Assembly: GCA_965223265.1 (NCBI GenBank) | Contig: OZ244999.1 | Location: forward strand, 6,304,001-6,368,000 | Direction of reading: 5' to 3' | From: Planctomycetota bacterium | Lineage (GTDB): Bacteria; Planctomycetota; UBA8108; SXIK01 | Length of the DNA: 64,000 nucleotides | Part shown: positions 34,959 through 48,365 of the stretch, piece after piece | How the letters are laid out: every line of letters begins with the position of its first letter | How positions within the stretch are numbered: the first letter of the stretch is position 1 | Notes under the pieces: model-generated | What the model saw: only the letters and a program-made list of their open reading frames with translations | The model's database searches: none | Told to the model about the DNA's origin: nothing | Position numbers and translations under genes: made by a program

Positions 34959-36983
34959 TCAAGGTCGTTCCGGACGCTCCAGCCGAAACTCATTTCGCTG
35001 TGCGTCGATCGTGTACTTGAAGTGTTGCAGAAAATTCAGTCCGAGCAGAGCCGTGTCGGCACCAACACTTGCAGGTAAGACGAGAACCCGCAAGTTACGG
35101 ACACTGTAGCCCTGTAAGCTGACCGAACGCATCTGGATGAGTGGAGTGCTGATGACCCCCCCTGCCGTTCGGACATTGACGCGCTCTGCACGGCGTAGGT
35201 CATAGCCCAACTGTTCTGCTAGCTGCCACGGAATCGCCGTGTAAGTCGCGCCCGTATCGATGATGAAGCTGAATTCGTCACGACGGCCATCGACGACAAC
35301 ACCGGCGCGAAGGGTTGAGCTCCCCGGTGCGATCGGAATCACGACGGCATCGCGACGACGCAGCGCGTCGTCGATACGACGCAGCAGCGTGTCGACGGCG
35401 TCAGCAACCCCGGAATCTAAAGCCCTTGCTTGCTGCAGAAGCAGCACAGCGTCGTCAAAGGCTTCAAGGTCCACGTAGAGGCGCGCCAGCTCGACTTGCA
35501 AAGCCGCGGAGTTTGGCAGCTGCTCGATCGCTTCGATCAACGCCAACTCCGCGAGACGAACGTCTGACACCGCGATCGCCTCTCTTGCACTTAAAAGATA
35601 GGCGTGTTCGACAAGCTGTTCGAGCGTTGCGCTCGGTCGCAGCTGGCGCGCTTGAAGCAACGCTGCGATGGCCTCGTCAAACTGACTCAAGTGGAGACAC
35701 GCTTCGCCGTAGGCTTGCCACAACCCCGGGGCGTCGTCGTAGCGGACGAGTGCAGCATCGGCGACCGCTAGCAAGTCCTCCCACATCGCCAAGCGGGCCA
35801 AACGTGCGATTTCTTCGCCATAACTCGTGCGCAGCAGACGCTCGGCCTCCTCAATCGTCGAGGCGTCGGGTGCGTCCACAAATCGCCGTTCGAGTGCGCG
35901 CACCATGAGACTGACGGCGTCCGCCCATTTCTTCTGACGGATCGCTTCCTTGCCGCGCTCGAAGAGATCGGAGAAAGTGCCGGCATAGACACGGTCCGTG
36001 AGCTGCTGCAGCGTCATAGAGACAGGAAAATCCGCCAGGCGAGCGAGGGCCGCGGCGGAGTCGACTCTCACATTCGGCTGATCAGGTACTGCCACTCCGT
36101 CCACGGCGCCGCCGTCTTCGCTCTTGGCGACGCGCCCACAGAGCCCTATGAGCGTCGCGTTGCGATCCACCACGGCGAAAGCGTCGTCGAGCGATGCGCC
36201 AGAGCTTGAGACGATCCCACGCGGAACGCGGTCGATGGCGCTGCGCTCAACACGCTCGAGGCTGGCTCTGATGGGCGTCGCCGCGCCTCCGAACGCGACC
36301 ACGTCGGCCGGCGTCTCGATCATCTCCAAACTCAGGCTGAGAATCTCTACCCAGGGATCGTCACGCGACTGACCAGCAAGCCTCACGAGTGCCTGATTCG
36401 AATCGTCATCACTGCCTACGAGGCCGACGACATCGACCGACTCCGACTTGCGACTCAGGAACCTCGCGGTGGCGCTGTACGCGCCGAGGAGAGGAGAGAA
36501 ACGACACAAAACGACTCCCCCGGCGCCGACCACGACGCCGCGCATCTCGCGCAGAGGCTTCCCGTTCGCGTCGCGCAATTCGAGAACGACGACGCTCGGG
36601 ACAACGGTTTCGCCCACCTGACGCAGAGACAGAGGCGGCGCTTCCTGCTCCTCGACCGACTCAATGGTGACACCCTCACGCCAATTCTCAGGGATCTCGT
36701 CACCGTCCGGCTTGAGCGCGGGTCGCTCGGTTGAAACCCGGTTACTGTCGTTGTGCAGTGAGGCGGATGAGCTGTCTTCTACGGCTCCATTGCGCAAGAC
36801 GTAGAGGGCGCCACCAAGAAGCAGCAGGAGAACCGCGAGCAACGCGAATGGCCAAACGCCACGGTTCGAACGGACCGCCGGCTGGCGCGGTTGCGGCTGC
36901 TGAGGTGTCGGGATCCGGACCCCGCAGAAGCTGCAGTAGCGCGACGATTCCGCACACGTGTTTCCGCAGCTCGGACAGCGCAT
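34959..36983 (-). CDS. Zn-ribbon/TM/TPR protein with C-terminal retropepsin-like (clan AA) aspartic protease
   Basis: CPSC..CSFC, a TM helix, TPR helices, FIIDTGATYTAI and ALLGLNFL. Confidence 0.85.
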   Translation of the reverse strand: MRCPSCGNTCAESSRYCSFCGVRIPTPQQPQPRQPAVRSNRGVWPFALLAVLLLLLGGALYVLRNGAVEDSSSASLHNDSNRVSTERPALKPDGDEIPENWREGVTIESVEEQEAPPLSLRQVGETVVPSVVVLELRDANGKPLREMRGVVVGAGGVVLCRFSPLLGAYSATARFLSRKSESVDVVGLVGSDDDSNQALVRLAGQSRDDPWVEILSLSLEMIETPADVVAFGGAATPIRASLERVERSAIDRVPRGIVSSSGASLDDAFAVVDRNATLIGLCGRVAKSEDGGAVDGVAVPDQPNVRVDSAAALARLADFPVSMTLQQLTDRVYAGTFSDLFERGKEAIRQKKWADAVSLMVRALERRFVDAPDASTIEEAERLLRTSYGEEIARLARLAMWEDLLAVADAALVRYDDAPGLWQAYGEACLHLSQFDEAIAALLQARQLRPSATLEQLVEHAYLLSAREAIAVSDVRLAELALIEAIEQLPNSAALQVELARLYVDLEAFDDAVLLLQQARALDSGVADAVDTLLRRIDDALRRRDAVVIPIAPGSSTLRAGVVVDGRRDEFSFIIDTGATYTAIPWQLAEQLGYDLRRAERVNVRTAGGVISTPLIQMRSVSLQGYSVRNLRVLVLPASVGADTALLGLNFLQHFKYTIDAQRNEFRLERPERP

Positions 36984-37119: not shown

Positions 37120-38313
37120 TTATCGCGCAGCGGAAAACTCAAGCGTACCCGCACCGACGAGAAACGCGCTGTATCTCCCATTCTCGGGCCGATTGAGATC
37201 GAGCTCGAACTTCATGGGCTGAAGCGCATCCACGCCAGCACGCAGCCACTCTGCAAGATCACGAGCCAGCAGCACGACGCCGGCTGGCTCCTGGCCACGA
37301 TCGGGGGCTGGAATCAAGGCGCCCAACTCCCGGTAGAGAATCGGAACCAGGGTGCCATCCTTTACCGGATCGAGGATGGCCTCCCGCACCGTACGGGCAA
37401 GCTCATCGCTGCTACCCGAGAATTCAGTGCGAACGGTGAACGAGACATGTCCGTCGCCATGAAAATCACCGACGGCCTCGACACTTTTCCACCCGGAGAG
37501 TAACACGTCATCGCTCGTTAAATCCACGAAGAGCGGGCTCGGTCGCGCAGCAAACTCGAATCCTGCACGGCGTCCCTGTGGCGCGCCTGAGAGGAACGAA
37601 GCTGCGAACTGCGACTTCGGCGCAAGGTTTTTCAGACTCAAGTCGTCCGGACGTGCCAAGGCGAACGGCAAGGAGCGGGCCCTTTGACGCTCGAGCTGAA
37701 GAGCCGCGCGCAAGTAATGCCGAGAGGTCGAGAGGAAAACGAAATCACCCGCCCCAGTAGCACAGAACTCGATCGCTGGGTTGATCAGAGAATACAGGCA
37801 GGTCAGCTCGACGTCACGACGCAAGGCGGCGTCGAGCTCTGCAGCTGGGATTCGCGTTGCCGCAGCGAATAGCGCCTCGCGAAGGGAGCTAAGGATCTTG
37901 TCACGATTCTCCGATCCGACGTCAAAGGCAGCGAGCCACTCGCGGTGTCGGCCGTTGAACCGCGCTGCGACAACAAACTCCCTAGAAATCAGTGGCCACC
38001 AGTCGGTCTGCGCGAAAACGCCTCGGAAGAGTTGAATCTCCTTCTTGCGCAGCTTTAGCTCTTCGCCGCCCGCACGCTGGAGCAGATACCGCCCCCAACC
38101 GTCCAGAAACGACGGCTGTGCTAGAGCATCACGCAGGGCGGTTATGCGAGCCTGCACTTCTTCCTGAGGTGCATCCGGGAGAACAACACGAAGGTAGAGC
38201 TCAGAATCGGCTGGAACGACGTGCGCCAGGGACGCCCCGGCAGACACTGCGGAGCGCGTCGCCGCGACGATGAGAATCGCAGCGAACAGTTTTTTGACGC
38301 CGCTTGGTGACAT
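37120..38313 (-). CDS. Hypothetical exported protein
   Basis: Signal-peptide-like N-terminus (MSPSGVKKLFAAILIVAA), then LAHVVPADSELYL. GGAG RBS before the ATG at 38313. Confidence 0.6.
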   Translation of the reverse strand: MSPSGVKKLFAAILIVAATRSAVSAGASLAHVVPADSELYLRVVLPDAPQEEVQARITALRDALAQPSFLDGWGRYLLQRAGGEELKLRKKEIQLFRGVFAQTDWWPLISREFVVAARFNGRHREWLAAFDVGSENRDKILSSLREALFAAATRIPAAELDAALRRDVELTCLYSLINPAIEFCATGAGDFVFLSTSRHYLRAALQLERQRARSLPFALARPDDLSLKNLAPKSQFAASFLSGAPQGRRAGFEFAARPSPLFVDLTSDDVLLSGWKSVEAVGDFHGDGHVSFTVRTEFSGSSDELARTVREAILDPVKDGTLVPILYRELGALIPAPDRGQEPAGVVLLARDLAEWLRAGVDALQPMKFELDLNRPENGRYSAFLVGAGTLEFSAAR

Positions 38314-38417
38314 ATCATCGCTCCATAGTCCACGCCGTGAACATCTTGTCGTGATTCTCCGACTCAAGCGTGCATTTGCAGACAGTGTCGCGAGCTTCAC
38401 GCGTGCGAGAATCTTGA

Positions 38418-39410
38418 TCAACTGTACATCCATTCAAGAATCGCTTTTTGCGCATGCAGGCGGTTCTCCGCTTGGCGCATCACCACCGACTGTTGAGAGT
38501 CCATCACCTCGTCCGTGACGACGACGTTACGCCGCACCGGTAAGCAATGCATGAAATACGCCCGCCGCGTCAGCGACATGACCTCCTTGTCGACGATCCA
38601 GTCACCGTGTCGAGCGCGGAGTTCGCTCTCCGCCTCCGCATCTTCGTAACGGGACAGTCCAGCCCAAGCCTTGGCGTAGATCACGTCTGCGTCGCGGGCC
38701 CCTTCATGTCGATCGTGGGTCACCCGCACACTTCCTCCCGCCTTCTTCGTGAAGTCTCGCGCTAAATCCATGATGCCGTCGTGCAGTTCGAACCCAGGAG
38801 GATGCGCCAGCGTTACATCCATGCCGACGCGCGTGGCGGCAAGAAGGATAGAGTTCGCAACCGCCATCGGCAACGCACGTGGATGGCTAGCCCAGGTGAT
38901 GCTGATCTTTCGCCCCTTGAAGCCTTCAAACAGCTCGCGGACCGTAAGCAAGTCTGCCATCGCTTGACATGGATGGTAGACAGCCGACTCCATGTTGAAC
39001 ACGGGAATCTTAGCGTGCTCCATAAAGGATGAAAACGTGCGGTCGAGCAAATCGTTCTCACGGTTCACGCCACGTGCAAAGCAGCGCAGACCGACCCCAT
39101 CGAAATAACGTGACAGCACCCCCATGGCCTCTTGCACGTGCTCGGAACTCTCGCCATCCATTCTCTTTCCGAACTCAGTTTCGAGCTTCCAGAGCGTCTG
39201 CCCTTCCAGATTCGTCACACCAGCGGCGAGTTGTCGGATGGCAACCTCGAAGGAACACCGTGTCCGCAGAGATGGATCGAGAAAAAGGAGGCCGATTTGC
39301 TTGTTCTCGAGTCCCCGGGTGTACCGATTCTCTTTGTGATAGAGCGCACGATCCAAGAACGTGTCGATCTGAGCTGGAGAGAACTCGTTCAGACTGTAGA
39401 AGTGACGCAT
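38418..39410 (-). CDS. argF: N-acyl-ornithine carbamoyltransferase (ArgF' type, probably N-succinyl)
   Basis: PSLRTR, MDGESSEH, NMESAVYHPCQ, HPRALPMAVANS and HCLPVRRN: AOTCase/SOTCase-family motifs rather than classical OTC. Confidence 0.9.
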   Translation of the reverse strand: MRHFYSLNEFSPAQIDTFLDRALYHKENRYTRGLENKQIGLLFLDPSLRTRCSFEVAIRQLAAGVTNLEGQTLWKLETEFGKRMDGESSEHVQEAMGVLSRYFDGVGLRCFARGVNRENDLLDRTFSSFMEHAKIPVFNMESAVYHPCQAMADLLTVRELFEGFKGRKISITWASHPRALPMAVANSILLAATRVGMDVTLAHPPGFELHDGIMDLARDFTKKAGGSVRVTHDRHEGARDADVIYAKAWAGLSRYEDAEAESELRARHGDWIVDKEVMSLTRRAYFMHCLPVRRNVVVTDEVMDSQQSVVMRQAENRLHAQKAILEWMYS

Positions 39411-39532
39411 GAGTGTTTCCTCTCACGGTCATACGGGGTACGACCGCTTCTTTTCCGTGTACGGGAGACTCGGCAATGTGCTCCACGCGGCGCAGGGAGC
39501 TCCCAGGGGAGCGGCCCCGAGCCAAACCATGA

Positions 39533-39560
39533 ATTATACTCTCGTGCGACGACGCGCAAA
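39533..39560 (-). promoter_or_regulatory. Possible internal sigma-70 promoter for argF'
   Basis: Minus strand TTTGCG-N16-TATAAT in the 170-bp argD-argF' gap. Confidence 0.4.
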
Positions 39561-39580
39561 AGCACCAAGCAATCCGCCGC

Positions 39581-40759
39581 TCACGCAGCGAAAGCCTCGA
39601 ACGCATCAAAGAAGGCAGACCATTCCGCCGCTGTCGCTGTCAGCGGTGGCAGCAGGCGCAAAGTGTTCGGTTCGTCGGCTTTGCCGACCAAAATGCGCCG
39701 CTGCACAAGATGTTTATGGAGCTCCGACGCGGGCTGCTCACACTCGACGCCGATGAGGTAGCCGAGACCGCGCACGTCACGGACGACGCCGCGCCCGATC
39801 ATGCCTCGAAGGCGCTCGATCGCTTCAGCTCCGAGGCGGGCCACCTTGGCGAGGAGCTCTTCCTTGATGATCGTTCGATAGGTCGCCGCCACCGCGGCTG
39901 CCGCGAGCGGTCCACCGCCGAACGTGCTGCCATGGTCGCCTACCTTCACCGCCTCGCTGATCTCGCCGCTTGCGAGTACAACACCGACGGGAAAGCCTCC
40001 GCCGACGCCCTTGGCCGTGGTCACCAGGTCTGGCTCGACGTCCCAATGTGCTCCGGCGAACCACTTTCCGGTTCGACCTGTGCCCGTCTGGACCTCGTCG
40101 AAGATCAACTGGATCCCGTGGGCTGTGCAGTAGTCCCGAAGACCGCGGTAGTAATCGGGCTCCGCCATGTAGACGCCCCGCATGCTCTGCACGGGTTCGA
40201 GCAACACGGCGGCAACGTCGTCGGGTGGCAGCCGCTGGACTGCATCGAGATCACCGAGTTCGACGAAATGCGTGCAACCGACGAGGTTTTCCTGAAACAT
40301 GTTTCGCAATCGCGGACTCCACGTCACGCTCAAACTTGCGATGGTGCGGCCATGAAACCCTCCCTGCATGGCGACCACGGTCGAACGAGCGGTGTGCTTG
40401 CGTGCCAGCTTGAGCGCAGTCTCGTTCGCTTCAGCGCCCGAGTTACAGAAAAAAACGGTGCGCATGGACGTGTAGGAATGTTCGACCAGTAGCTCCGCCG
40501 CCTCGGCACGTTTGGGATGAAAGCAGACGTTCGAATAGAAATCGAGCTCGTCGAGCTGACGCTTCAAGGCGGCAACCCAGGCTGGATGCGAGTGCCCGAG
40601 AAGGGAAACCGCATGGCCACCGTAGAAATCGAGGTAACGATTGCCGCTATCATCCCAGACGTAACAACCCTCTCCCCGCACAAGCGCGAAAGGGAACTTG
40701 CCATAGGTCGGCAGGAGAAACTGTTTCTCCTGTTGGTAGGCTTCTTTGCTTTGGTTCAT
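39581..40759 (-). CDS. argD: Acetyl/succinyl-ornithine aminotransferase (class III)
   Basis: FCNSGAEANE, FHGRT, IFDEVQTGTGRTG and TTAKGVGGGFP; located in the arg operon. Confidence 0.92.
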   Translation of the reverse strand: MNQSKEAYQQEKQFLLPTYGKFPFALVRGEGCYVWDDSGNRYLDFYGGHAVSLLGHSHPAWVAALKRQLDELDFYSNVCFHPKRAEAAELLVEHSYTSMRTVFFCNSGAEANETALKLARKHTARSTVVAMQGGFHGRTIASLSVTWSPRLRNMFQENLVGCTHFVELGDLDAVQRLPPDDVAAVLLEPVQSMRGVYMAEPDYYRGLRDYCTAHGIQLIFDEVQTGTGRTGKWFAGAHWDVEPDLVTTAKGVGGGFPVGVVLASGEISEAVKVGDHGSTFGGGPLAAAAVAATYRTIIKEELLAKVARLGAEAIERLRGMIGRGVVRDVRGLGYLIGVECEQPASELHKHLVQRRILVGKADEPNTLRLLPPLTATAAEWSAFFDAFEAFAA

Positions 40760-40896
40760 TGTTTTTCATCCTGATCGATCGAAGCGCGCTTGGGTACGCA
40801 CGTCGAAAAGTCGTCGTTCAAGGAATGATCGGTACCGACGGAGACACGAACCGCGACGGCAACAGGAAGCTGCTGCGTCAGCCGGCGGTCGCGATT

Positions 40897-41958
40897 TCAT
40901 ACGTATCCGGCAGGAAGTCTCAAACCGGTCGTCTCCGGCAAACCGAAGGCATAGTTAAAGTTTTGAACTGCTTGGCCGGCAGCTCCTTTACCCAGGTTGT
41001 CGATGGCGCTGAAGACGACGCTGCGGTCTGTCTCCCCGGCGATGCCAATCACTGCACGCGGACCTCCTTGCACCCAGCGCAGCTCGGGCGATCCAGAGAC
41101 GACGGACACGAGAGGTGCGTCGTCATAGGCCGCGCGAAATAGGCTCTCGACAGCATCTCGCCCTAGGCCAGGAACGAATGTTGTCGCGAAGATGCCGCGC
41201 ACGAGCGGGCCGGACTGCGGCACAAAGTGGATCTTGAAATCTGTGTCCGTAAGCGTTTTCAGAAGCCCCTCGACCTCGAGCAGATGTTGATGCACGAGCG
41301 GCTTGTAGGCTCGGACGTTGCTCGCACGCTCAGGGTGGTGCGTTGTCTGCAGCGGCTTGTTTCCGGCACCCGATGACCCCGTGAGCGCCGCAACGAAAAC
41401 GTCGCCGCGTAGTTGACCGGCCGCCGCGAGTGGCGCCAAAGCGAGATTGACTGCCGTCGCAAAGCACCCCGGATTCGCAATCAGCCGTGCGCCCGCAAGC
41501 TGTTCTCTACGGTACTCCGTGAAGCCGTAGACGAATTCGGCGAGTTGATCAGGCGCGACGTGCTCACGGCCATAAAACTTCTCGTACGCCGCAGCGTCTT
41601 CACTGCGGAAATCACCGCCGAGATCGATGAAGACGACACCCTGGTGCTCGCGCGCAAGCCTTGGGATGACATCCTGCGAGCTATTGTGCGGCAAGCAGAC
41701 GAACACCGCCTGCGTCTCGCTAATTCGCGCCGACGCCGAGTCAAGATCGATGAACGTCAAATCCAGAAAGTCGCGGAGATTCGGCAGCACACCGCTCACG
41801 TGATTGCCCACCCGCGCATTCGCGCTGATCCAGCGCACGTCGACGCGCGGATGGCCGACCAAGTAACGGAGGATCTCTCCACCGATGTAACCCGAGGCTC
41901 CCAGAACACCGACCGGAATGACCGCGCCGGGTTCGTTCGTCGTGTTTGTCTGTTGCAT
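40897..41958 (-). CDS. argC: N-acetyl-gamma-glutamyl-phosphate reductase
   Basis: GASGYIG, IANPGCFATA, GSSGAG and IDNLGKGAAGQAVQN. Confidence 0.95.
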   Translation of the reverse strand: MQQTNTTNEPGAVIPVGVLGASGYIGGEILRYLVGHPRVDVRWISANARVGNHVSGVLPNLRDFLDLTFIDLDSASARISETQAVFVCLPHNSSQDVIPRLAREHQGVVFIDLGGDFRSEDAAAYEKFYGREHVAPDQLAEFVYGFTEYRREQLAGARLIANPGCFATAVNLALAPLAAAGQLRGDVFVAALTGSSGAGNKPLQTTHHPERASNVRAYKPLVHQHLLEVEGLLKTLTDTDFKIHFVPQSGPLVRGIFATTFVPGLGRDAVESLFRAAYDDAPLVSVVSGSPELRWVQGGPRAVIGIAGETDRSVVFSAIDNLGKGAAGQAVQNFNYAFGLPETTGLRLPAGYV

Positions 41959-42039
41959 CAAGATTCTCCAGCATCGAATGCGACATCACCCGAGTGGGTG
42001 CCGGCGATCGTGCGCCGGTTGTCATTCGTGCGAATAGCG

Positions 42040-43071
42040 TTAGATTCCGAGCTTGCTCCTGACGAAGCGAGCCAGCTCTTCGGGGCGTTTGTACGCGTTG
42101 ATGGCCGGTGTCCCAAGCTCACGATCAAGCAAATCGACGCCGGCGCGATTGTCGGTGCAAGGCCCGGAGAAGAGATCGATCCCGATCCCCCGCTGCGCCA
42201 GAAACTGCGCGCCTCCCCACGCACCCACAAGATCGGCGGCGCAAAAGGCGTGCATCTGAACGAATCGCTTCAGCTCCTCGTCTTGCAGAATATCGGTGAC
42301 CCCATAGTCACCGAGGATTCCGTCTCCGAGCTCAAGTGCGACCAGATCCGGAGCCCCGCGTGAAAGCGAAGCAATCAACGTCTTTGCGATGGTGACCAGC
42401 TCGGCGGCCGCCAAGCTAGCGGTCGACGCGTAGCCGACGTCGAGAAACGAGGCAGTCGCCGCAGCGCCATGGTCCTCCATCGCGATGAGATCTCTCAAGC
42501 AGGCGATCCCGGTGACCTTACCACCGGCAATCGCCAGGCCCTCCTTCGAAAGCTCTTGGATGAGCTCCGCCAAGAACAGCGTCTTCCCGGAGTCCATCCC
42601 TGTGCCGCTGACGGCCAGAATCGGGGGCACGTCGAGATCCGCGATCGTCTGCGCCGCTTCGATGCTGCCGTCACTTAGCCGCACGATGCGTCCATCACGA
42701 ACAGGCATGCCCAGCACCTCACAGGCGACTGGGACGCCGAAGTCCATATGGTCGCTGGAGCTGACCCCAAGAACGCCACCGCGGTTGAGCAGCTGCAGCG
42801 TATCACCGACTGCGAGTGTCGCCGGTACGTCGCCGCAAAAACCGCGCAGCGCACGACGACGACCGAGCGCGCCGACGAAGAGGTCGCCGCGAAAAATCTT
42901 CGCCATGCGGCCATCCGCTAGCTCGAGTTGGCTGTAGACGCGCTTTTCGCGGAGTGCCCGTACGACAACCGTGTGACCGGCGTGCGCCTCGAGATCGTCT
43001 GTCAACTCGATTTCCTTGTCGAAACCAAGTCGCGACACGACAGACGCAATTTTGTGAACTTTGATCTTCAT
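42040..43071 (-). CDS. DUF1611-like P-loop protein within the arg operon
   Basis: GTGMDSGKT Walker A, GGKVTGIACLRD, LELGDGILG and N-terminal LELADGR..GDLFVGALGRR. ATG at 43071; alternative 43083. Confidence 0.75.
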   Translation of the reverse strand: MKIKVHKIASVVSRLGFDKEIELTDDLEAHAGHTVVVRALREKRVYSQLELADGRMAKIFRGDLFVGALGRRRALRGFCGDVPATLAVGDTLQLLNRGGVLGVSSSDHMDFGVPVACEVLGMPVRDGRIVRLSDGSIEAAQTIADLDVPPILAVSGTGMDSGKTLFLAELIQELSKEGLAIAGGKVTGIACLRDLIAMEDHGAAATASFLDVGYASTASLAAAELVTIAKTLIASLSRGAPDLVALELGDGILGDYGVTDILQDEELKRFVQMHAFCAADLVGAWGGAQFLAQRGIGIDLFSGPCTDNRAGVDLLDRELGTPAINAYKRPEELARFVRSKLGI

Positions 43072-43138
43072 CGCTGCATCCATGCATCGGCGCTACGGCG
43101 ACGACGCGTACGGAAAACGAGTTGCACCGCGCGTCAGC

Positions 43139-44368
43139 TCATCCCGTTGCGTCCGTGGTGTGGCCCCCCGCCTGGCGATAGAGCCGCGAGGGAATCGCCA
43201 TCATCGTGCTGAATCCGCGCACATCTTCGCCGCTCCAGAGTTTTGGCATCTCACCGTAGACCCCTGATGCGCCGTGCATCATGCTGTTGGGACTGCGCAC
43301 GGCTTGGACGTCGAACGCTCCCGCCGCGAGTCGCACGCACGCATCGCCGTCGACGCGATCTTGCGACGAGTCAATCAGTGCTTCGATGTCACGCAGCACC
43401 GGCTCAAACGCGTTGCCTTCATGGATCAGCTTGCCGTAGAACTCCGCCATGTGATCTTTCCAGAAACGCTGCCAAGCAGTCGTGGTAATCTTCTCAAGCT
43501 CGCGGTGCGAGTGGATGAGCACCTGGGCAGCGCCGGCTTCGAACGCGATGCGCCCCTTGATTCCGAGCACCGTATCGCCAATGTGAATCCCAAGGCCGAC
43601 GCGATGCCGCCGGCACAGGTCGCCGAGCTTCTGTACGAGTGTGACACCGTCCATGTCGACACCGTTCAGCGCCGTCGGCACGCCGCCCTTGAACGTGATT
43701 TCCACGATCTCCGTTTCCGTCGTCGCCGGCACGCTGACCGCTTGATCATAGAGCGAGTCGGGAATCTTGCTCCACGGGTCGTGCGTCTCGCCGCCGCCGA
43801 TCGTCGCACCCCAGAGCCCGCTGTTGATCGAGTACTGGCGCACCGACTTGTCGATTTCGACGCCACGTTCGGCGAGAAAATCGAACTCTTCATCACGTGT
43901 TAGCTTCTCGTCACGAATCGGCGTCAGAACCGGCACCCCCGGCAGCAGCACCGCGAAGGCAATGTCGAATCGCACTTGGTCATTGCCCGCACCCGTGGAA
44001 CCATGCGCCACGGCCGCAGCGGCTTCGCGCTGGGCGACCTCGGCGATGATTTCCGCCTGCACGACGCGCTCCGCCGCGACGGCGAGCGGATAGACGGCGC
44101 CCCGGAGAACGTTCCCTTTGATCAGGTAGCTGACGTAGCGATCGAAGACTCGGCCGCGTCCGTCGATCGTCTCGTGCGCCAGGACACCGAGACGCCGCGC
44201 GCGCGCCTCAATCTCTTCCAGCTCTTCTGCGCCGAACCCGCCCGTATCGACCGTGACGGTGACGACGTCGTAGCCCTTCTTTTCCCGCAAGTAGGGAATG
44301 CAGTAAGACGTATCCAGTCCGCCGGAATACGCCAGGACGACCTTCTCTTTCCTAGTCATTGTTGTCAC
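43139..44368 (-). CDS. argG: Argininosuccinate synthase
   Basis: VLAYSGGLDTS, HGSTGAGNDQVRF and GIKGRIAFEA. Confidence 0.96.
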   Translation of the reverse strand: MTTMTRKEKVVLAYSGGLDTSYCIPYLREKKGYDVVTVTVDTGGFGAEELEEIEARARRLGVLAHETIDGRGRVFDRYVSYLIKGNVLRGAVYPLAVAAERVVQAEIIAEVAQREAAAAVAHGSTGAGNDQVRFDIAFAVLLPGVPVLTPIRDEKLTRDEEFDFLAERGVEIDKSVRQYSINSGLWGATIGGGETHDPWSKIPDSLYDQAVSVPATTETEIVEITFKGGVPTALNGVDMDGVTLVQKLGDLCRRHRVGLGIHIGDTVLGIKGRIAFEAGAAQVLIHSHRELEKITTTAWQRFWKDHMAEFYGKLIHEGNAFEPVLRDIEALIDSSQDRVDGDACVRLAAGAFDVQAVRSPNSMMHGASGVYGEMPKLWSGEDVRGFSTMMAIPSRLYRQAGGHTTDATG

Positions 44369-45770
44369 CTATTCCTTCGCTGGCTGTGTCTTCCTCATGC
44401 GCCGACTCTGTTAGAAGCTTGCGCACGCGCTGGATCTGACTGCGCACCTGCGCCGGTGCCGTGCCGCCGACGACGGTCTTGTCCGCCAGCGCCGCTTCGA
44501 TGCGCAGCGCGTCGAACACGTCTGCGGCGAACTCTTTGTGAACATCCTGGTAGTCACTGAGCTGCAGCTCCTCGAGTTTCGCGCTCCGCGCCTCGGCGAG
44601 TCGAACGACCCGGCCGACGACGCCGTGGGCCTCACGGAACGCCACGCCCTTGCGCGTCAGGTAGTCCGCCAGCCCCATGGCGTTGAGGAACCCGCCGTCG
44701 AGCGCTGCTTCTGTCCGCTGGCGATCGACCTGCAAGGTTTCGATCGTGGCCCGAAACACCGGCAAGATCAGCTCGATCGTGTCGACGGCATCGAAGAGAC
44801 CTTCCTTGTCTTCCTGGAGATCCTTGTTGTACGTGAGCGGCAGTCCCTTGAGCGTCGTCAGCAGTCCCAGGAGGCTGCCGAACACACGCCCACTCTTTCC
44901 CCGGGCAAGCTCGCACGCATCCGCGTTCTTCTTCTGCGGCAACATCGAGCTGCCCGTGGTCACCGAGTCGTCGAGCGTGGCAAAACCGAACTCCGCCGTC
45001 GACCAAAGGATCAGATCCTCACTCCAGCGCGACAGGTGCACCATCAAAAGCGCCGCAGCGTGAAGAAAGTCGCAGACGAAGTCGCGATCACTGACGGCAT
45101 CCATGGAGTTGTGCGTCAGGCGCTCGAAGCCGAGCTCGGAGCGCAAGAGATCTCGATCGATGCCAAACTGATTGCCAGCACACGCGCCCGATCCGAGCGG
45201 ACACGCATCGCTCTGGTCCGCGGCCCACAGAAACCGCGTGCGGTCGCGCTGCAGCATCTCGGCGTAGGCGAGAAGATGATGCGCAAGGAGTACTGGCTGC
45301 GCGCGCTGCAGGTGCGTGTAGGCTGGAATGACGACGTCGATGGCCCGCTCGGCGGCATCAGCAGTCGCCAGTATGAGGCTGCGCAGTGAAGCGGCCACCT
45401 CCTTGCTCACACGTTTGACGTAAAGCCTCAAGTCCGTCGCGACTTGGTCGTTCCGACTGCGTCCGGTGTGGAGTTTTTCCCCCGCGGCGCCGGCAATCTC
45501 TGTCAGCCGCGATTCGAGGTTCATATGAATGTCTTCGAGCTCGCGCGAGAACGCGAAGCTGCCCGCTTCGATCTCTGCGAGCACTTGACGCAGACCTTCG
45601 CGAATCGAGGTCGCCTCCGCCGACGAAATGAGCCCTCCCTGCTCGAGCGCTTTCGTCCACGCCAGACTGCCCGCGACGTCTTCGCGGTAGAGTCGCTGGT
45701 CAAAATCGATCGACGCGTTGAGTCGCGCCATCGCTCGAGTGAGGCTCTTGCCGAATCGTTCGCTTCGCAT
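44352..45770 (-). CDS. argH: Argininosuccinate lyase
   Basis: LHTGRSRNDQ, YTHLQRAQP, TGSSMLPQKKN and YNKDLQEDKE. Confidence 0.97.
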   Translation of the reverse strand: MRSERFGKSLTRAMARLNASIDFDQRLYREDVAGSLAWTKALEQGGLISSAEATSIREGLRQVLAEIEAGSFAFSRELEDIHMNLESRLTEIAGAAGEKLHTGRSRNDQVATDLRLYVKRVSKEVAASLRSLILATADAAERAIDVVIPAYTHLQRAQPVLLAHHLLAYAEMLQRDRTRFLWAADQSDACPLGSGACAGNQFGIDRDLLRSELGFERLTHNSMDAVSDRDFVCDFLHAAALLMVHLSRWSEDLILWSTAEFGFATLDDSVTTGSSMLPQKKNADACELARGKSGRVFGSLLGLLTTLKGLPLTYNKDLQEDKEGLFDAVDTIELILPVFRATIETLQVDRQRTEAALDGGFLNAMGLADYLTRKGVAFREAHGVVGRVVRLAEARSAKLEELQLSDYQDVHKEFAADVFDALRIEAALADKTVVGGTAPAQVRSQIQRVRKLLTESAHEEDTASEGIGDNND

Positions 45771-45774
45771 GAGG

Positions 45775-46782
45775 TCAACTCTCCCCCGTCGGCGGTGACT
45801 CTGGTGACGATGACGGTGGTGCGGCGGATGCGTCGTTCGCTCCCGACTCGGCAGTCGCGTCGAGATCCTTCAAGCGATCGCGATAGATCCGCTCCTCGTC
45901 GCGATCGAGAATCATCGTGCCGGTGCCGCGCACGGTGAACACCTCGCACAGCAGAGCGTTCGGCTCGAGACCGTTGATGATGTGCGCTCGCTTCACCCCA
46001 CCACGCACAGCGGCGGCGGCCGTCGTCAACTTAGGGATCATCCCATCCGAGGCTTCGCCACGCTGAATCACGGCGTCGATGTCTTCGAGCGTGAGGTACG
46101 AGTAGCGCGTCGAGGGATCGTTCAAGTCGCGGTACACCCCACTCACATTAGAAAACAAGAACAACTTCTCAGCAGGGAGCGAAGCGGCGATCTCACTGGC
46201 GATGGTGTCGGCGTTGATGTTGAGCACCTGCCCGTCATCGCTACAACCAAGCGAAGCGACGACCGGCACGAATCGCTCCTCGAGAAGAACGCGCAGGACA
46301 TCGGGGCGCACGCTCTGAATGTCGCCGACGTTCTGGAAGTCGACTTCACGCTCGCTCCCGCTAGCATCGTCGTACACTTTCCGGGGCGGCCGTTTGATCG
46401 CTTGGACGAGATCGCCGTCGACGCCAGAGAGTCCGACTCCTGGGGTGCCGTAGCGACGCAGCGCCGCCAAGATATCGGTGGAGATCTGGCCGGCAAAGAC
46501 CATCTTGGCGAGCTCGAGCAGACGGTCATCGGTGATGCGCCGTCCCCCAACCTTCTTGGCTTCGATGCCGAGGCGACCAGCGATGTCGGAGAGCTGCGGC
46601 CCACCGCCATGGATGATCACTAGCCGGATGTTGAGCTCGTGGAGCAAGGCGATCTCTTCGGCCAGAGCGCTGAGGCGCTCCGGATCGGAGACCACTTCGC
46701 CGCCAAACTTGATCACGAAGATCTTGTTGCGGTACTCCTTGATATAAGGGAGCGCCTGCTTGAGGAGTTTGATGTCTTCCAT
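45775..46782 (-). CDS. argB: Acetylglutamate kinase
   Basis: QALPYI..FVIKFGG, IHGGGPQ, LNINADT and GMIPKL. Likely ATG at 46782. No C-terminal GNAT domain. Confidence 0.94.
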   Translation of the reverse strand: MEDIKLLKQALPYIKEYRNKIFVIKFGGEVVSDPERLSALAEEIALLHELNIRLVIIHGGGPQLSDIAGRLGIEAKKVGGRRITDDRLLELAKMVFAGQISTDILAALRRYGTPGVGLSGVDGDLVQAIKRPPRKVYDDASGSEREVDFQNVGDIQSVRPDVLRVLLEERFVPVVASLGCSDDGQVLNINADTIASEIAASLPAEKLFLFSNVSGVYRDLNDPSTRYSYLTLEDIDAVIQRGEASDGMIPKLTTAAAAVRGGVKRAHIINGLEPNALLCEVFTVRGTGTMILDRDEERIYRDRLKDLDATAESGANDASAAPPSSSPESPPTGES

Positions 46783-47279
46783 AGTATCGAGCCGATTGCC
46801 GGCGAATTCCAACGATTGGACAAGGACGAAGCCCGCATGGTGGCGAATGCACCGCGTTAGGTCAAGGTGACGAGCTCGAGTCGGCCGCGCCGCCTTGAAT
46901 GGGTCCGAACCGCGGCAGAATCGATCCGCGGCGAACCAATCCTCCGGGTGAGGATCGAGCCCCCCGGTAAATTCAGCGCCGCAAGTCAGCGCCCGTTGGT
47001 CAGCGCCGGTCACAGAGACCGCCGGCGGGCGGGCCACCCGTTGCCGAGCGCGACAAGCCGCACTTGCTCTGAGATCGATTCGTCATCGTCGCGATCGGCG
47101 ACGCAAAGGACAAACAAGCTGACGACTTGCCGGAGGTCCGCTCCGGGCGCGGCACCGGTTCCACGCCGCACACTACAGTCGCGCTCTGCAGTGACGTGAG
47201 TGGCCGACACCCACGGCCGCGCGGGCGCTGAGAAGCTTCGCTGCACCCACGAGTGAGGCCGCGCGCGCTGCTCGCGCTC

Positions 47280-47345
47280 TTATCGACGACGTCTAAGTCG
47301 GTTACGTCTAAATCGGTGCAGTCGAATCGACCGTCGTGTCAGCAT
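47280..47345 (-). CDS. Putative Arg-rich leader peptide of the arg operon (MLTRRSIRLHRFRRNRLRRRR)
   Basis: ATG to TAA ORF of 21 codons with 11 Arg, between a promoter and argB on the same strand. Confidence 0.7.
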   Translation of the reverse strand: MLTRRSIRLHRFRRNRLRRRR

Positions 47346-47399
47346 GGCTCGGGTCGCTTGGTGGGTTCTTCGGCGCACCGCGCCGGTCGGAAACCCCAC

Positions 47400-47428
47400 G
47401 TTATATCCGTGCTCTCGAGTCACTCCAA
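47400..47428 (-). promoter_or_regulatory. Sigma-70 promoter of the arg leader/operon
   Basis: Minus strand TTGGAG-N17-TATAAC; the -10 is about 55 nt upstream of the leader ATG. Confidence 0.6.
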
Positions 47429-47588
47429 GACTTTTCCGGGTAGTCGCGCCTGCGGCCAACGTGATTCTGCTGGCGCCGGGCGTTAAAAAAGGAGAGTGAG
47501 CGGGTAGAATCCGTCTCCCAACAGAGAGCAAACTCGGCGCCCGCGCGCAGAGCGAGTAGCGCAGATCCCCGAGCAAAAAGGAAACCCC

Positions 47589-48365
47589 ATGGCCCACAAC
47601 CTCCTGGCCGGTAAGAAAGGTCTCGTTCTCGGTGTCGCCAACAAGCGAAGTATCGCCTGGGCAGTCTCGCAAGCTGCAAGCGACAACGGTGCGGAGCTGG
47701 CGTTCACGTATCTGAACGACAAACTCAAGGACAAGGTCGCAGCGCTGGCGAAGGATCTTCCGGGCAGCTCCCCTCTCTATCCGTGTGACGTCACGCGCGA
47801 CGAGGAGATCGACGCTCTCGGCGAGAGCGTGCGCCGGGACTTCGGCACGCTCGATTTCGTCATCCATTCGATCGCTTTCGCCGACCGCAAAGACCTCGAA
47901 GGCCGTTTTGTCGACACCTCGCGCCAAGGTTATCACTTGGCGCAGGACGTCAGTAGCTACTCGCTCACCGCCACCGCACGCGCCACCGCGCCGCTCATGG
48001 AAAGCGGCGGCAGCATCGTCACCATGACCTACCTTGGAGCCGAACGCGCCATCAAGAACTACAATGTCATGGGAGTCGCCAAGGCGGCGCTCGAAGCGTC
48101 CGTGCGCTACTTGGCATCAGAGCTAGGCGAGCGTCAGATCCGCGTCAACGCCGTCTCGGCAGGCCCGATCAACACCCTGGCAGCACGCGGCATCGCCGGC
48201 TTCACCGACATCCTCGACCATGTCGCACAGGTCGCGCCGCTGAGGCGCAACGTCGAGGTCGAAGAGGTTGCCAACACGACCGTCTTTCTCGCCAGCCCAC
48301 TCGCCAGCGGCATCACCGGCGAGACGGTCCATGTCGACGGTGGCTTCAACATGGTAGGGCTTTGA
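47589..48365 (+). CDS. fabI: Enoyl-ACP reductase FabI
   Basis: GVANKRSIAW, HSIAFA, YNVMGVAKAALEASVRYL and SAGPINTLAA. Confidence 0.96.
   Translation: MAHNLLAGKKGLVLGVANKRSIAWAVSQAASDNGAELAFTYLNDKLKDKVAALAKDLPGSSPLYPCDVTRDEEIDALGESVRRDFGTLDFVIHSIAFADRKDLEGRFVDTSRQGYHLAQDVSSYSLTATARATAPLMESGGSIVTMTYLGAERAIKNYNVMGVAKAALEASVRYLASELGERQIRVNAVSAGPINTLAARGIAGFTDILDHVAQVAPLRRNVEVEEVANTTVFLASPLASGITGETVHVDGGFNMVGL

Follow-up and report, generated by a model that had tools for sequence, protein, structure and literature searches.

A conserved arginine-dense leader ORF upstream of the arg operon in an ArgR-less order of Planctomycetota, a probable arginine attenuator of non-classical build

Textbook leader-peptide attenuation governs operons that respond to tryptophan, histidine, leucine, threonine, phenylalanine and isoleucine/valine, and its enterobacterial forms include the leaders trpL, hisL, leuL, thrL, pheL and ilvL/ivbL. 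In the same accounts, arginine biosynthesis in bacteria is controlled by the ArgR repressor, or by T-boxes in some Firmicutes. In fungi, the arginine attenuator peptide encoded by the arg-2/CPA1 uORF senses free arginine through its nascent chain; it is not rich in arginine, and it acts on eukaryotic scanning. Other leader ORFs are reported to work by different routes. Pausing at Arg codons of orf34, in the long leader of Salmonella speF, acts through Rho and an RNase-sensitive fold, according to Ben-Zvi et al. 2019 (PMC6386406). Mycobacterial polycysteine leaderless sORFs, recognised only recently, work as sensors without terminators (Canestrari et al., bioRxiv 10.1101/834739), and T-box regulation of arginine genes in some Firmicutes is described in PMC1262725. 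A leader-peptide attenuator for bacterial arginine biosynthesis was not found in the open full-text literature searched, which included passages of PMC8632094, PMC4833913, PMC2965389, PMC9723704 and PMC1262725.

The window analysed here is a 64,000-nt stretch of a Planctomycetota genome assembled as one 9.18-Mb contig (60.8% G+C; 91.65% complete by marker count), and the stretch is present in four DNA sequencing runs, all from one study; no RNA run is listed for it. On its minus strand, an arginine biosynthesis operon is preceded by a short upstream ORF (uORF) in which 11 of 21 codons specify arginine. A preliminary description, made from the letters of the window, had proposed this uORF as a ribosome-mediated arginine attenuator. 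The features needed to follow the argument are these.

47423..47428, minus: -35-like hexamer TTGGAG, read directly, with a 17-nt spacer to the -10-like box
47400..47405, minus: -10-like hexamer TATAAC, read directly, from which the putative transcription start is placed
47361..47399, minus: predicted 5’ stem-loop (MFE fold), GUGGG...CCCAC with an inner GGCGC/GCGCC helix
47280..47345, minus: leader ORF of 21 codons plus TAA, read directly
47289..47318, minus: in-frame tandem duplication of 15 nt within the ORF (repeat family D1)
46783..47279, minus: untranslated spacer of 497 nt from the uORF stop to argB, without a coding signature
45775..46782, minus: argB, encoding acetylglutamate kinase and opening the operon (Pfam AA_kinase; NCBIfam TIGR00761)
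38418..45770, minus: argH, argG, a 347-aa gene, argC, argD and argF (Pfam)
47589..48365, plus: fabI (enoyl-ACP reductase), divergent (profile matches)

Like the enterobacterial leader attenuators, the window places a short ORF, packed with codons for the end product, at the 5’ end of a biosynthetic operon. Those systems respond to amino acids other than arginine, whereas the window comes from the Planctomycetota, has no intrinsic terminator, has no Rfam leader match, and separates the uORF from the first structural gene by 498 nt, far exceeding the spacing in classical attenuators. ArgR/ARG-box repression and arginine T-boxes share its target, the arginine biosynthesis genes, but no ArgR domain was found in the genome or the order, and no T-box match in the window. 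The fungal attenuator peptide also links arginine-pathway expression to arginine through a uORF; the proposed signal in the window is instead the charging of tRNA-Arg at Arg codons. With the polycysteine sORFs (bioRxiv 10.1101/834739), the window shares a putative single-amino-acid sensor ORF in a high-GC bacterium and the lack of a classical terminator. It differs from them in that its ORF has a ~50-nt leader and sits 498 nt from argB, and in that masking the ORF barely shifts the predicted accessibility of the argB start. In PMC6386406, speF orf34 is a uORF in a long leader with Arg-codon pausing under low arginine and no intrinsic terminator, a layout that the window resembles; Rho and RNA structure are its effectors. 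The conserved peptide of orf34, however, contains just one pair of consecutive Arg codons, and its target is ornithine decarboxylase, as against 11 Arg codons of 21 and an arg operon in the window. By analogy, we regard speF orf34 as the best working analogue for the long leader of the window.

Direct reading of the minus strand agreed letter for letter with the sequence given in the preliminary description, both for TTGGAG-N17-TATAAC and for the frame from ATG to TAA. The uORF begins at an ATG (47345) ~50 nt 3’ of the -35/-10-like pair, ends at a TAA (47282-47280), and encodes MLTRRSIRLHRFRRNRLRRRR (47345..47280, minus). Arginine occupies codons 4, 5, 8, 11, 13, 14, 16 and 18-21, and a recount reproduced the earlier tally of five CGA, three CGT, two AGA and one CGG codon. 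The absence of CGC despite its common use was also borne out: in a sample of 340 long ORFs with high GC3, the genome encodes 51% of its arginines by CGC, more than by any other codon, versus 0 of 11 in the uORF. Third-position GC content is 0.32 in the uORF as against 0.76-0.78 in argB, argH and fabI. The tRNA-Arg genes cover every codon family (ACG and TCG twice each, and CCG, CCT and TCT). Repeat family D1 consists of two adjacent copies (87% identity, spacing 15) that encode R-F-R-R-N and R-L-R-R-R; the unit is exactly five codons and lies in frame. The Shine-Dalgarno element is weak, as had been remarked, with only a GAG 5-7 nt 5’ of the ATG; clearer elements precede the uORFs of relatives, namely GGGAGAG in L109, GGAAAGGA in L010 and AGAGG in L009.

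Pfam and NCBIfam profiles confirmed the arg operon that had been assigned downstream: argB, argH, argG, argC, argD and argF were all identified, in the order argB-H-G-x-C-D-F. ArgB scored 209.6 bits against TIGR00761 (cut-off 151.3), and its start, the ATG at 46782, was chosen by agreement with relatives; the OTCase match that marks argF lies at 38427-38861. The divergent fabI/argB layout recurs in the order, and a frame antisense to fabI is seen upstream in relatives. The spacer between the uORF and argB shows no coding GC3 pattern, its ORFs have no Pfam match, and there is no second copy of it in the genome.

Several other genes at this locus drew our attention. The 347-aa gene between argG and argC (42040-43083, minus) belongs to no Pfam or NCBIfam family; clusters similar to it are labelled ‘hypothetical’, with DUF1611, MobB and CbiA in 16%, 14% and 11% of members, respectively. 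No ArgJ (PF01960) was found in the genome, and this gene is therefore a candidate for a missing acetyl-transfer step of the pathway. A 437-aa ORF (37120-38433, minus) without a Pfam family shares 16 nt with the 3’ end of argF, and it may be part of the arg operon; it is similar to hypothetical proteins of Planctomycetota, and DUF3352 occurs in 32% of one such cluster. Downstream of the arg cluster lies a gene for a 674-aa protein (34959-36983, minus) that contains TPR repeats and ends in a retropepsin-like aspartyl protease domain (PF13975, PF13650).

The promoter-like pair that had been described is present in the window. A consensus promoter scan returned no minus-strand site there, and support comes instead from conserved register. 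When 16 leaders were anchored on the -10-like box, TTGGAG fell in the register of the relatives’ A/T-rich block ending in TTTCTTTGCC. An A/T-rich block resembling ATTTTTCTTTGCC ends ~19 nt 5’ of the -10-like box in all 16, and the window’s AAAAGTCTTGGAG is in register with it. The position of TATAAC is taken by TATAGT, TATATT, TATAAG or TATACA in the 15 related leaders. Conservation of these elements across 16 leaders would make the uORF the first ORF of the transcript. The predicted 5’ stem-loop just downstream has a positional counterpart in L109, a GCCGCC/GGCGGC hairpin; the whole-region fold z-score was not significant.

Two side observations concern the DNA around this promoter. The A/T-rich block at 47423-47445 (minus), with a consensus near AAGATTTTCTTTGCC, recurs between fabI and argB throughout the order; an extended -35 element, an UP element, or an operator common to the divergent genes are possible identities for it. 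An exact 10-nt repeat, GGAAACCCCA, occurs at 47389-47398 and 47580-47589 (plus); one copy is directly 5’ of the fabI start codon, and the second is complementary to the predicted 5’ end of the arg leader. The repeat is probably due to chance.

No argR had been seen in the window, and extending the check to the genome gave the same answer. Neither ArgR domain (PF02863, PF01316) had a match in the whole 9.18-Mb genome; the control searches gave matches in 8-9 of 14 genomes. None of the 21 genomes of the order has a match to the C-terminal domain, as compared with 34 of 121 genomes in a phylum-wide sample. The lack of ArgR, together with the presence of similar frames in relatives, makes the uORF probably a ribosome-based arginine sensor.

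We asked how readily such a frame arises by chance. The density score, the thresholds and the leader boundaries (drawn by eye) were set after the data had been seen, and the related genomes are not independent of one another; the following counts are to be read in that light. When the 618-nt leader was shuffled 2000 times with dinucleotide frequencies kept, the Arg-density score of the window uORF was never reached. For raw count, 147 of 1000 shuffles produced an ATG ORF (12-60 codons) that had 11 or more Arg codons. The unusual trait of the uORF is its Arg density, not its raw Arg count. Genome-wide, 64 of 67,401 ATG ORFs of 12-45 codons are at least 50% Arg, a rate that by arithmetic predicts ~0.002 such ORFs per 620-nt single-strand leader; because the leader is CpG-rich, the local shuffles are the fairer null. 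Among other leaders, Arg density was reached by 0 of 2000 shuffles in L109, by 1 of 2000 in each of L009, L010 and g5 (L013), and by 23, 77 and 80 of 2000 in L113, L003 and L006, respectively. Three more genera of the order carry an Arg-dense uORF at p ≤ 0.001 in the shuffle test, and in these a hairpin and T-run terminator follows the uORF. Nine of the 17 leaders have no significant Arg-dense ATG uORF, and in four of these every ATG ORF is shorter than 12 codons or absent. None of the reverse complements of the tested leaders gave a comparable score.

Conservation was assessed in the order, which comprises 21 genomes from 11 genera in the collection searched. All 20 genomes with argB were inspected, and a metagenome scan contributed nine more close argB loci. 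The search for Arg-rich small ORFs in related genomes that had been proposed yielded homologues in the two nearest relatives by ArgB, L109 (77% identity) and L003 (75%), beside the Arg-dense uORFs of the three further genera. In L109 the uORF, MNLFRRHRFRPVRRLVRRRP before the stop, contains 9 Arg in 20 codons and begins ~55 nt after the -10-like box, behind its GGGAGAG; the L003 uORF reads MHPTDHSFHRGRPRRGRGGRRR. The pattern H-R-x-R-[P/R] ... R-R-R just 5’ of the stop is common to the three, and L003 retains it as H-R-x-R-P...RRR-stop. When the ~800-nt leaders of the window and L109 were compared by local blastn, the top match coincided exactly with the 3’ half of the uORF and contained two gaps of 3 nt; its E value of 0.098 in this small search is marginal alone. 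Within the match, aligned Arg codons differ synonymously (CGT/CGC twice, CGA/CGT and CGA/AGA). Aligned globally by MAFFT to the leader of L003 and to that of L109, the window leader gave nothing informative either time, a DNA search with the leader in 40 relatives found only the self-match in its own genome, and three-frame tblastn against the L109 and L003 leaders was noisy and gave no other conserved peptide.

Farther afield in the order, the uORF of genus g5 encodes MKPLRSRPRSTRRRSRAFCARCRLARRFRI, with 12 Arg in 30 codons. Across 13 g5 sequences all 12 Arg codons remain Arg, two of them varying synonymously (AGA/AGG), and residues change at 6 of 17 non-Arg codons. The uORFs of L009, L010 and L113 contain 12 Arg in 27 codons, 12 in 31, and 6 in 20-23, respectively. 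By a criterion chosen after the data had been seen (8 or more Arg codons making up 35% or more of the frame, within 700 nt of argB), no ATG uORF was found at any of 71 argB loci outside the order. Upstream of carA and argS, no Arg-rich uORF was found. We conclude that the uORF is real, non-random and conserved. A separate observation concerns Blastocatellia loci from Acidobacteriota MAGs (L037, L083, L059, L079, L068), in which a TTG-started frame (MPxGAPQRRRHRRRARRA-like) recurs 60-260 nt 5’ of argB; it may be an off-frame reading of some conserved element.

The leaders of related genera carry a second conserved element. In 7 of the 11 genera, a hairpin with a CCCAC...GTGGG base and a run of six or more T after it lies 25-150 nt 5’ of argB; the T-run is degenerate in two genera (L004, L005), and the terminator is absent in two (the window and L003). 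In L109 a T8 is present, but no convincing hairpin goes with it. The CCCAC...GTGGG stem base is constant across genera (loci L004-L013, L110, L112, L113 and L183), while the loop and inner stem differ. Leaders L004, L005, L007, L110, L112 and L183 retain a terminator-like hairpin and have no significant Arg-dense uORF; the hairpin is therefore not strictly dependent on the uORF, and it may have a role beyond the uORF or receive a second input.

The relation of this hairpin to the ribosome was explored with a simple simulation, an MFE fold of only the RNA 3’ of the ribosome at each codon, which replaced an earlier masked-fold version with the whole 5’ leader that was confounded by 5’-leader pairing in g5. 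The terminator base formed only with the ribosome past the first Arg cluster in four of seven leaders (g5, L009, L010 and L006), and the other three (L012, L113 and L110) showed no attenuator behaviour. In those four relatives, as in the enterobacterial attenuators, a hairpin and U-tract terminator is thus combined with predicted formation that is tied to ribosome position. By eye, the 3’ end of the uORF in g5 and L012 (GGCUGGC..CGAAG) is complementary to a stretch abutting the 5’ arm of the terminator, and in g5 both substitutions in that stretch preserve G-U pairs.

A classical attenuator model fits these relatives as far as their sequences go: a similar uORF stands before a hairpin and U-tract terminator, and its parts could work as follows. 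With a ribosome stalled in the Arg cluster, the 3’ part of the uORF would be exposed and could base-pair to the terminator’s 5’ arm, giving read-through; a ribosome reaching the stop codon would cover that 3’ part, so that the terminator would form and transcription end.

The window offers no such terminator. Standard and relaxed scans, and folding, found no intrinsic terminator between the uORF and argB, and folds of the leader in pieces gave z-scores near 0 throughout. Rfam had no match at gathering score in the whole window, T-boxes included, and none at E values up to 10 in 46900-47700. The sole find of the relaxed scan, a CCGGAG/CTCCGG hairpin 13 nt before TTGTTTGTC, was rejected as a terminator. 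A pairing of the uORF core with 46844-46860 had a high predicted probability, but its duplex energy was no better than that of shuffles (521 of 1000), and we took it as chance. Masking the uORF barely altered how accessible the argB start is predicted to be. The genome encodes a Rho RNA-binding domain; a C-rich, G-poor rut-like stretch is absent from the 200 nt after the uORF stop, where the C/G ratio is 0.68-1.15.

The preliminary description had further held that a shortage of Arg-tRNA stalls ribosomes in the uORF and so allows read-through. The sensing half of that proposal gains from the conserved Arg-dense leader ORF, the absence of ArgR, and the uORF and terminator of relatives. The read-through half fares less well: no terminator or antiterminator pair was found in the window, and 498 nt separate the uORF stop from argB, so that read-through upon stalling is carried over to the window by analogy. 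For the window itself we infer that the uORF is translated, that ribosomes stall on it, which way regulation runs and how it is coupled to the operon. Because its Arg codons are dense and mostly non-preferred, transit of the ribosome would depend on charged tRNA-Arg, which would make the uORF a cis-acting arginine sensor in an ArgR-less lineage. The lineage of the window, L109 and L003 (three leaders) would have lost the intrinsic terminator as its leader grew to 300-560 nt, and the stalled or released ribosome would act through something else. By analogy with speF orf34 of Salmonella, the likeliest routes would be Rho-dependent termination, or a switch in mRNA folding or stability within the long leader.

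We consider the window a probable arginine attenuator of non-classical build. That this conserved leader ORF acts as an arginine sensor seems to us somewhat better than an even bet. The fuller scheme comes a little short of even: in it, an uncultured, ArgR-less order runs its arg operon by an Arg-codon leader peptide, with terminator output in most genera, and the lineage of the window has switched to a terminator-independent route across a 300-560-nt leader, through Rho, RNA folding or decay.

These readings have to be weighed against others. The uORF might be translated and conserved without sensing arginine, either setting basal expression, by blocking Rho termination or opening leader structure, or encoding a very basic micropeptide. 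With rho present in the genome and no terminator/antiterminator pair in the window, this could hold, and in speF translation of orf34 as such counteracts Rho, according to PMC6386406. It is the Arg codons, however, and not the peptide sequence, that are kept across genera; the uORF is associated only with arg biosynthesis genes; and A/T-ending, non-preferred Arg codons suit a sensor of decoding rate better than a peptide product. We judge this explanation unlikely. Less likely again is a chance open frame, devoid of function, in a CpG-rich non-coding leader. High-GC DNA of this kind gives many CGN codons, as the 147 of 1000 shuffles with at least 11 Arg codons and the 64 ORFs of at least 50% Arg in the genome illustrate, and the weak Shine-Dalgarno element, the missing terminator and the 498-nt gap speak for it as well. 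Against it stand the 0 of 2000 shuffles that attain the density, the ~0.002 ORFs expected per leader, and the homologous ORF in L109 and L003, where Arg codons change synonymously and indels stay in frame within leaders that are otherwise unalignable.

Two further explanations appear more improbable still. The window might itself hold a classical attenuator whose intrinsic terminator was overlooked by the scans. Relatives possess one; a pyrimidine-rich tract, UUCGUCCUUGUCC, lies ~45 nt 5’ of argB, where L004, L005 and L183 have degenerate T-runs; and the uORF core is complementary to 46844-46860, just 5’ of that tract, at 14 of 17 pairs with a pairing probability of ~0.97. The hairpin before UUCGUCCUUGUCC is weak, though (-13.7 kcal/mol, z 0.27), the long-range duplex does not outdo its shuffles, and the accessibility of argB hardly responds to uORF masking, all of which makes an overlooked terminator very unlikely. 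To our minds the least probable account, by a small step, is that the two 15-nt direct repeats at 47289-47318 form a DNA or RNA operator for an unknown protein and that the frame is incidental. The repeats are adjacent and 87% identical, and since no known arginine regulator was found, another may exist. But L109 and L003 retain the Arg-rich frame without the tandem repeat, the unit is five codons in frame, as expected of an Arg-adding duplication, and the repeats lie ~80-110 nt 3’ of the -10-like box, not over the promoter.

If the fuller scheme is true, arginine biosynthesis would gain its first ribosome-mediated attenuator, and one that changed its output mechanism yet kept its sensor. The leader is small enough for synthesis and reporter constructs. 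Within the order, the contrast between a uORF with a canonical terminator and a uORF with a long, terminator-free leader would form a natural series for attenuator evolution. A conserved Arg-codon leader would add arginine to the list of amino acids with attenuation and extend the mechanism to the Planctomycetota, in which gene regulation is little studied, and it would explain how arginine is sensed in a lineage that has no ArgR.
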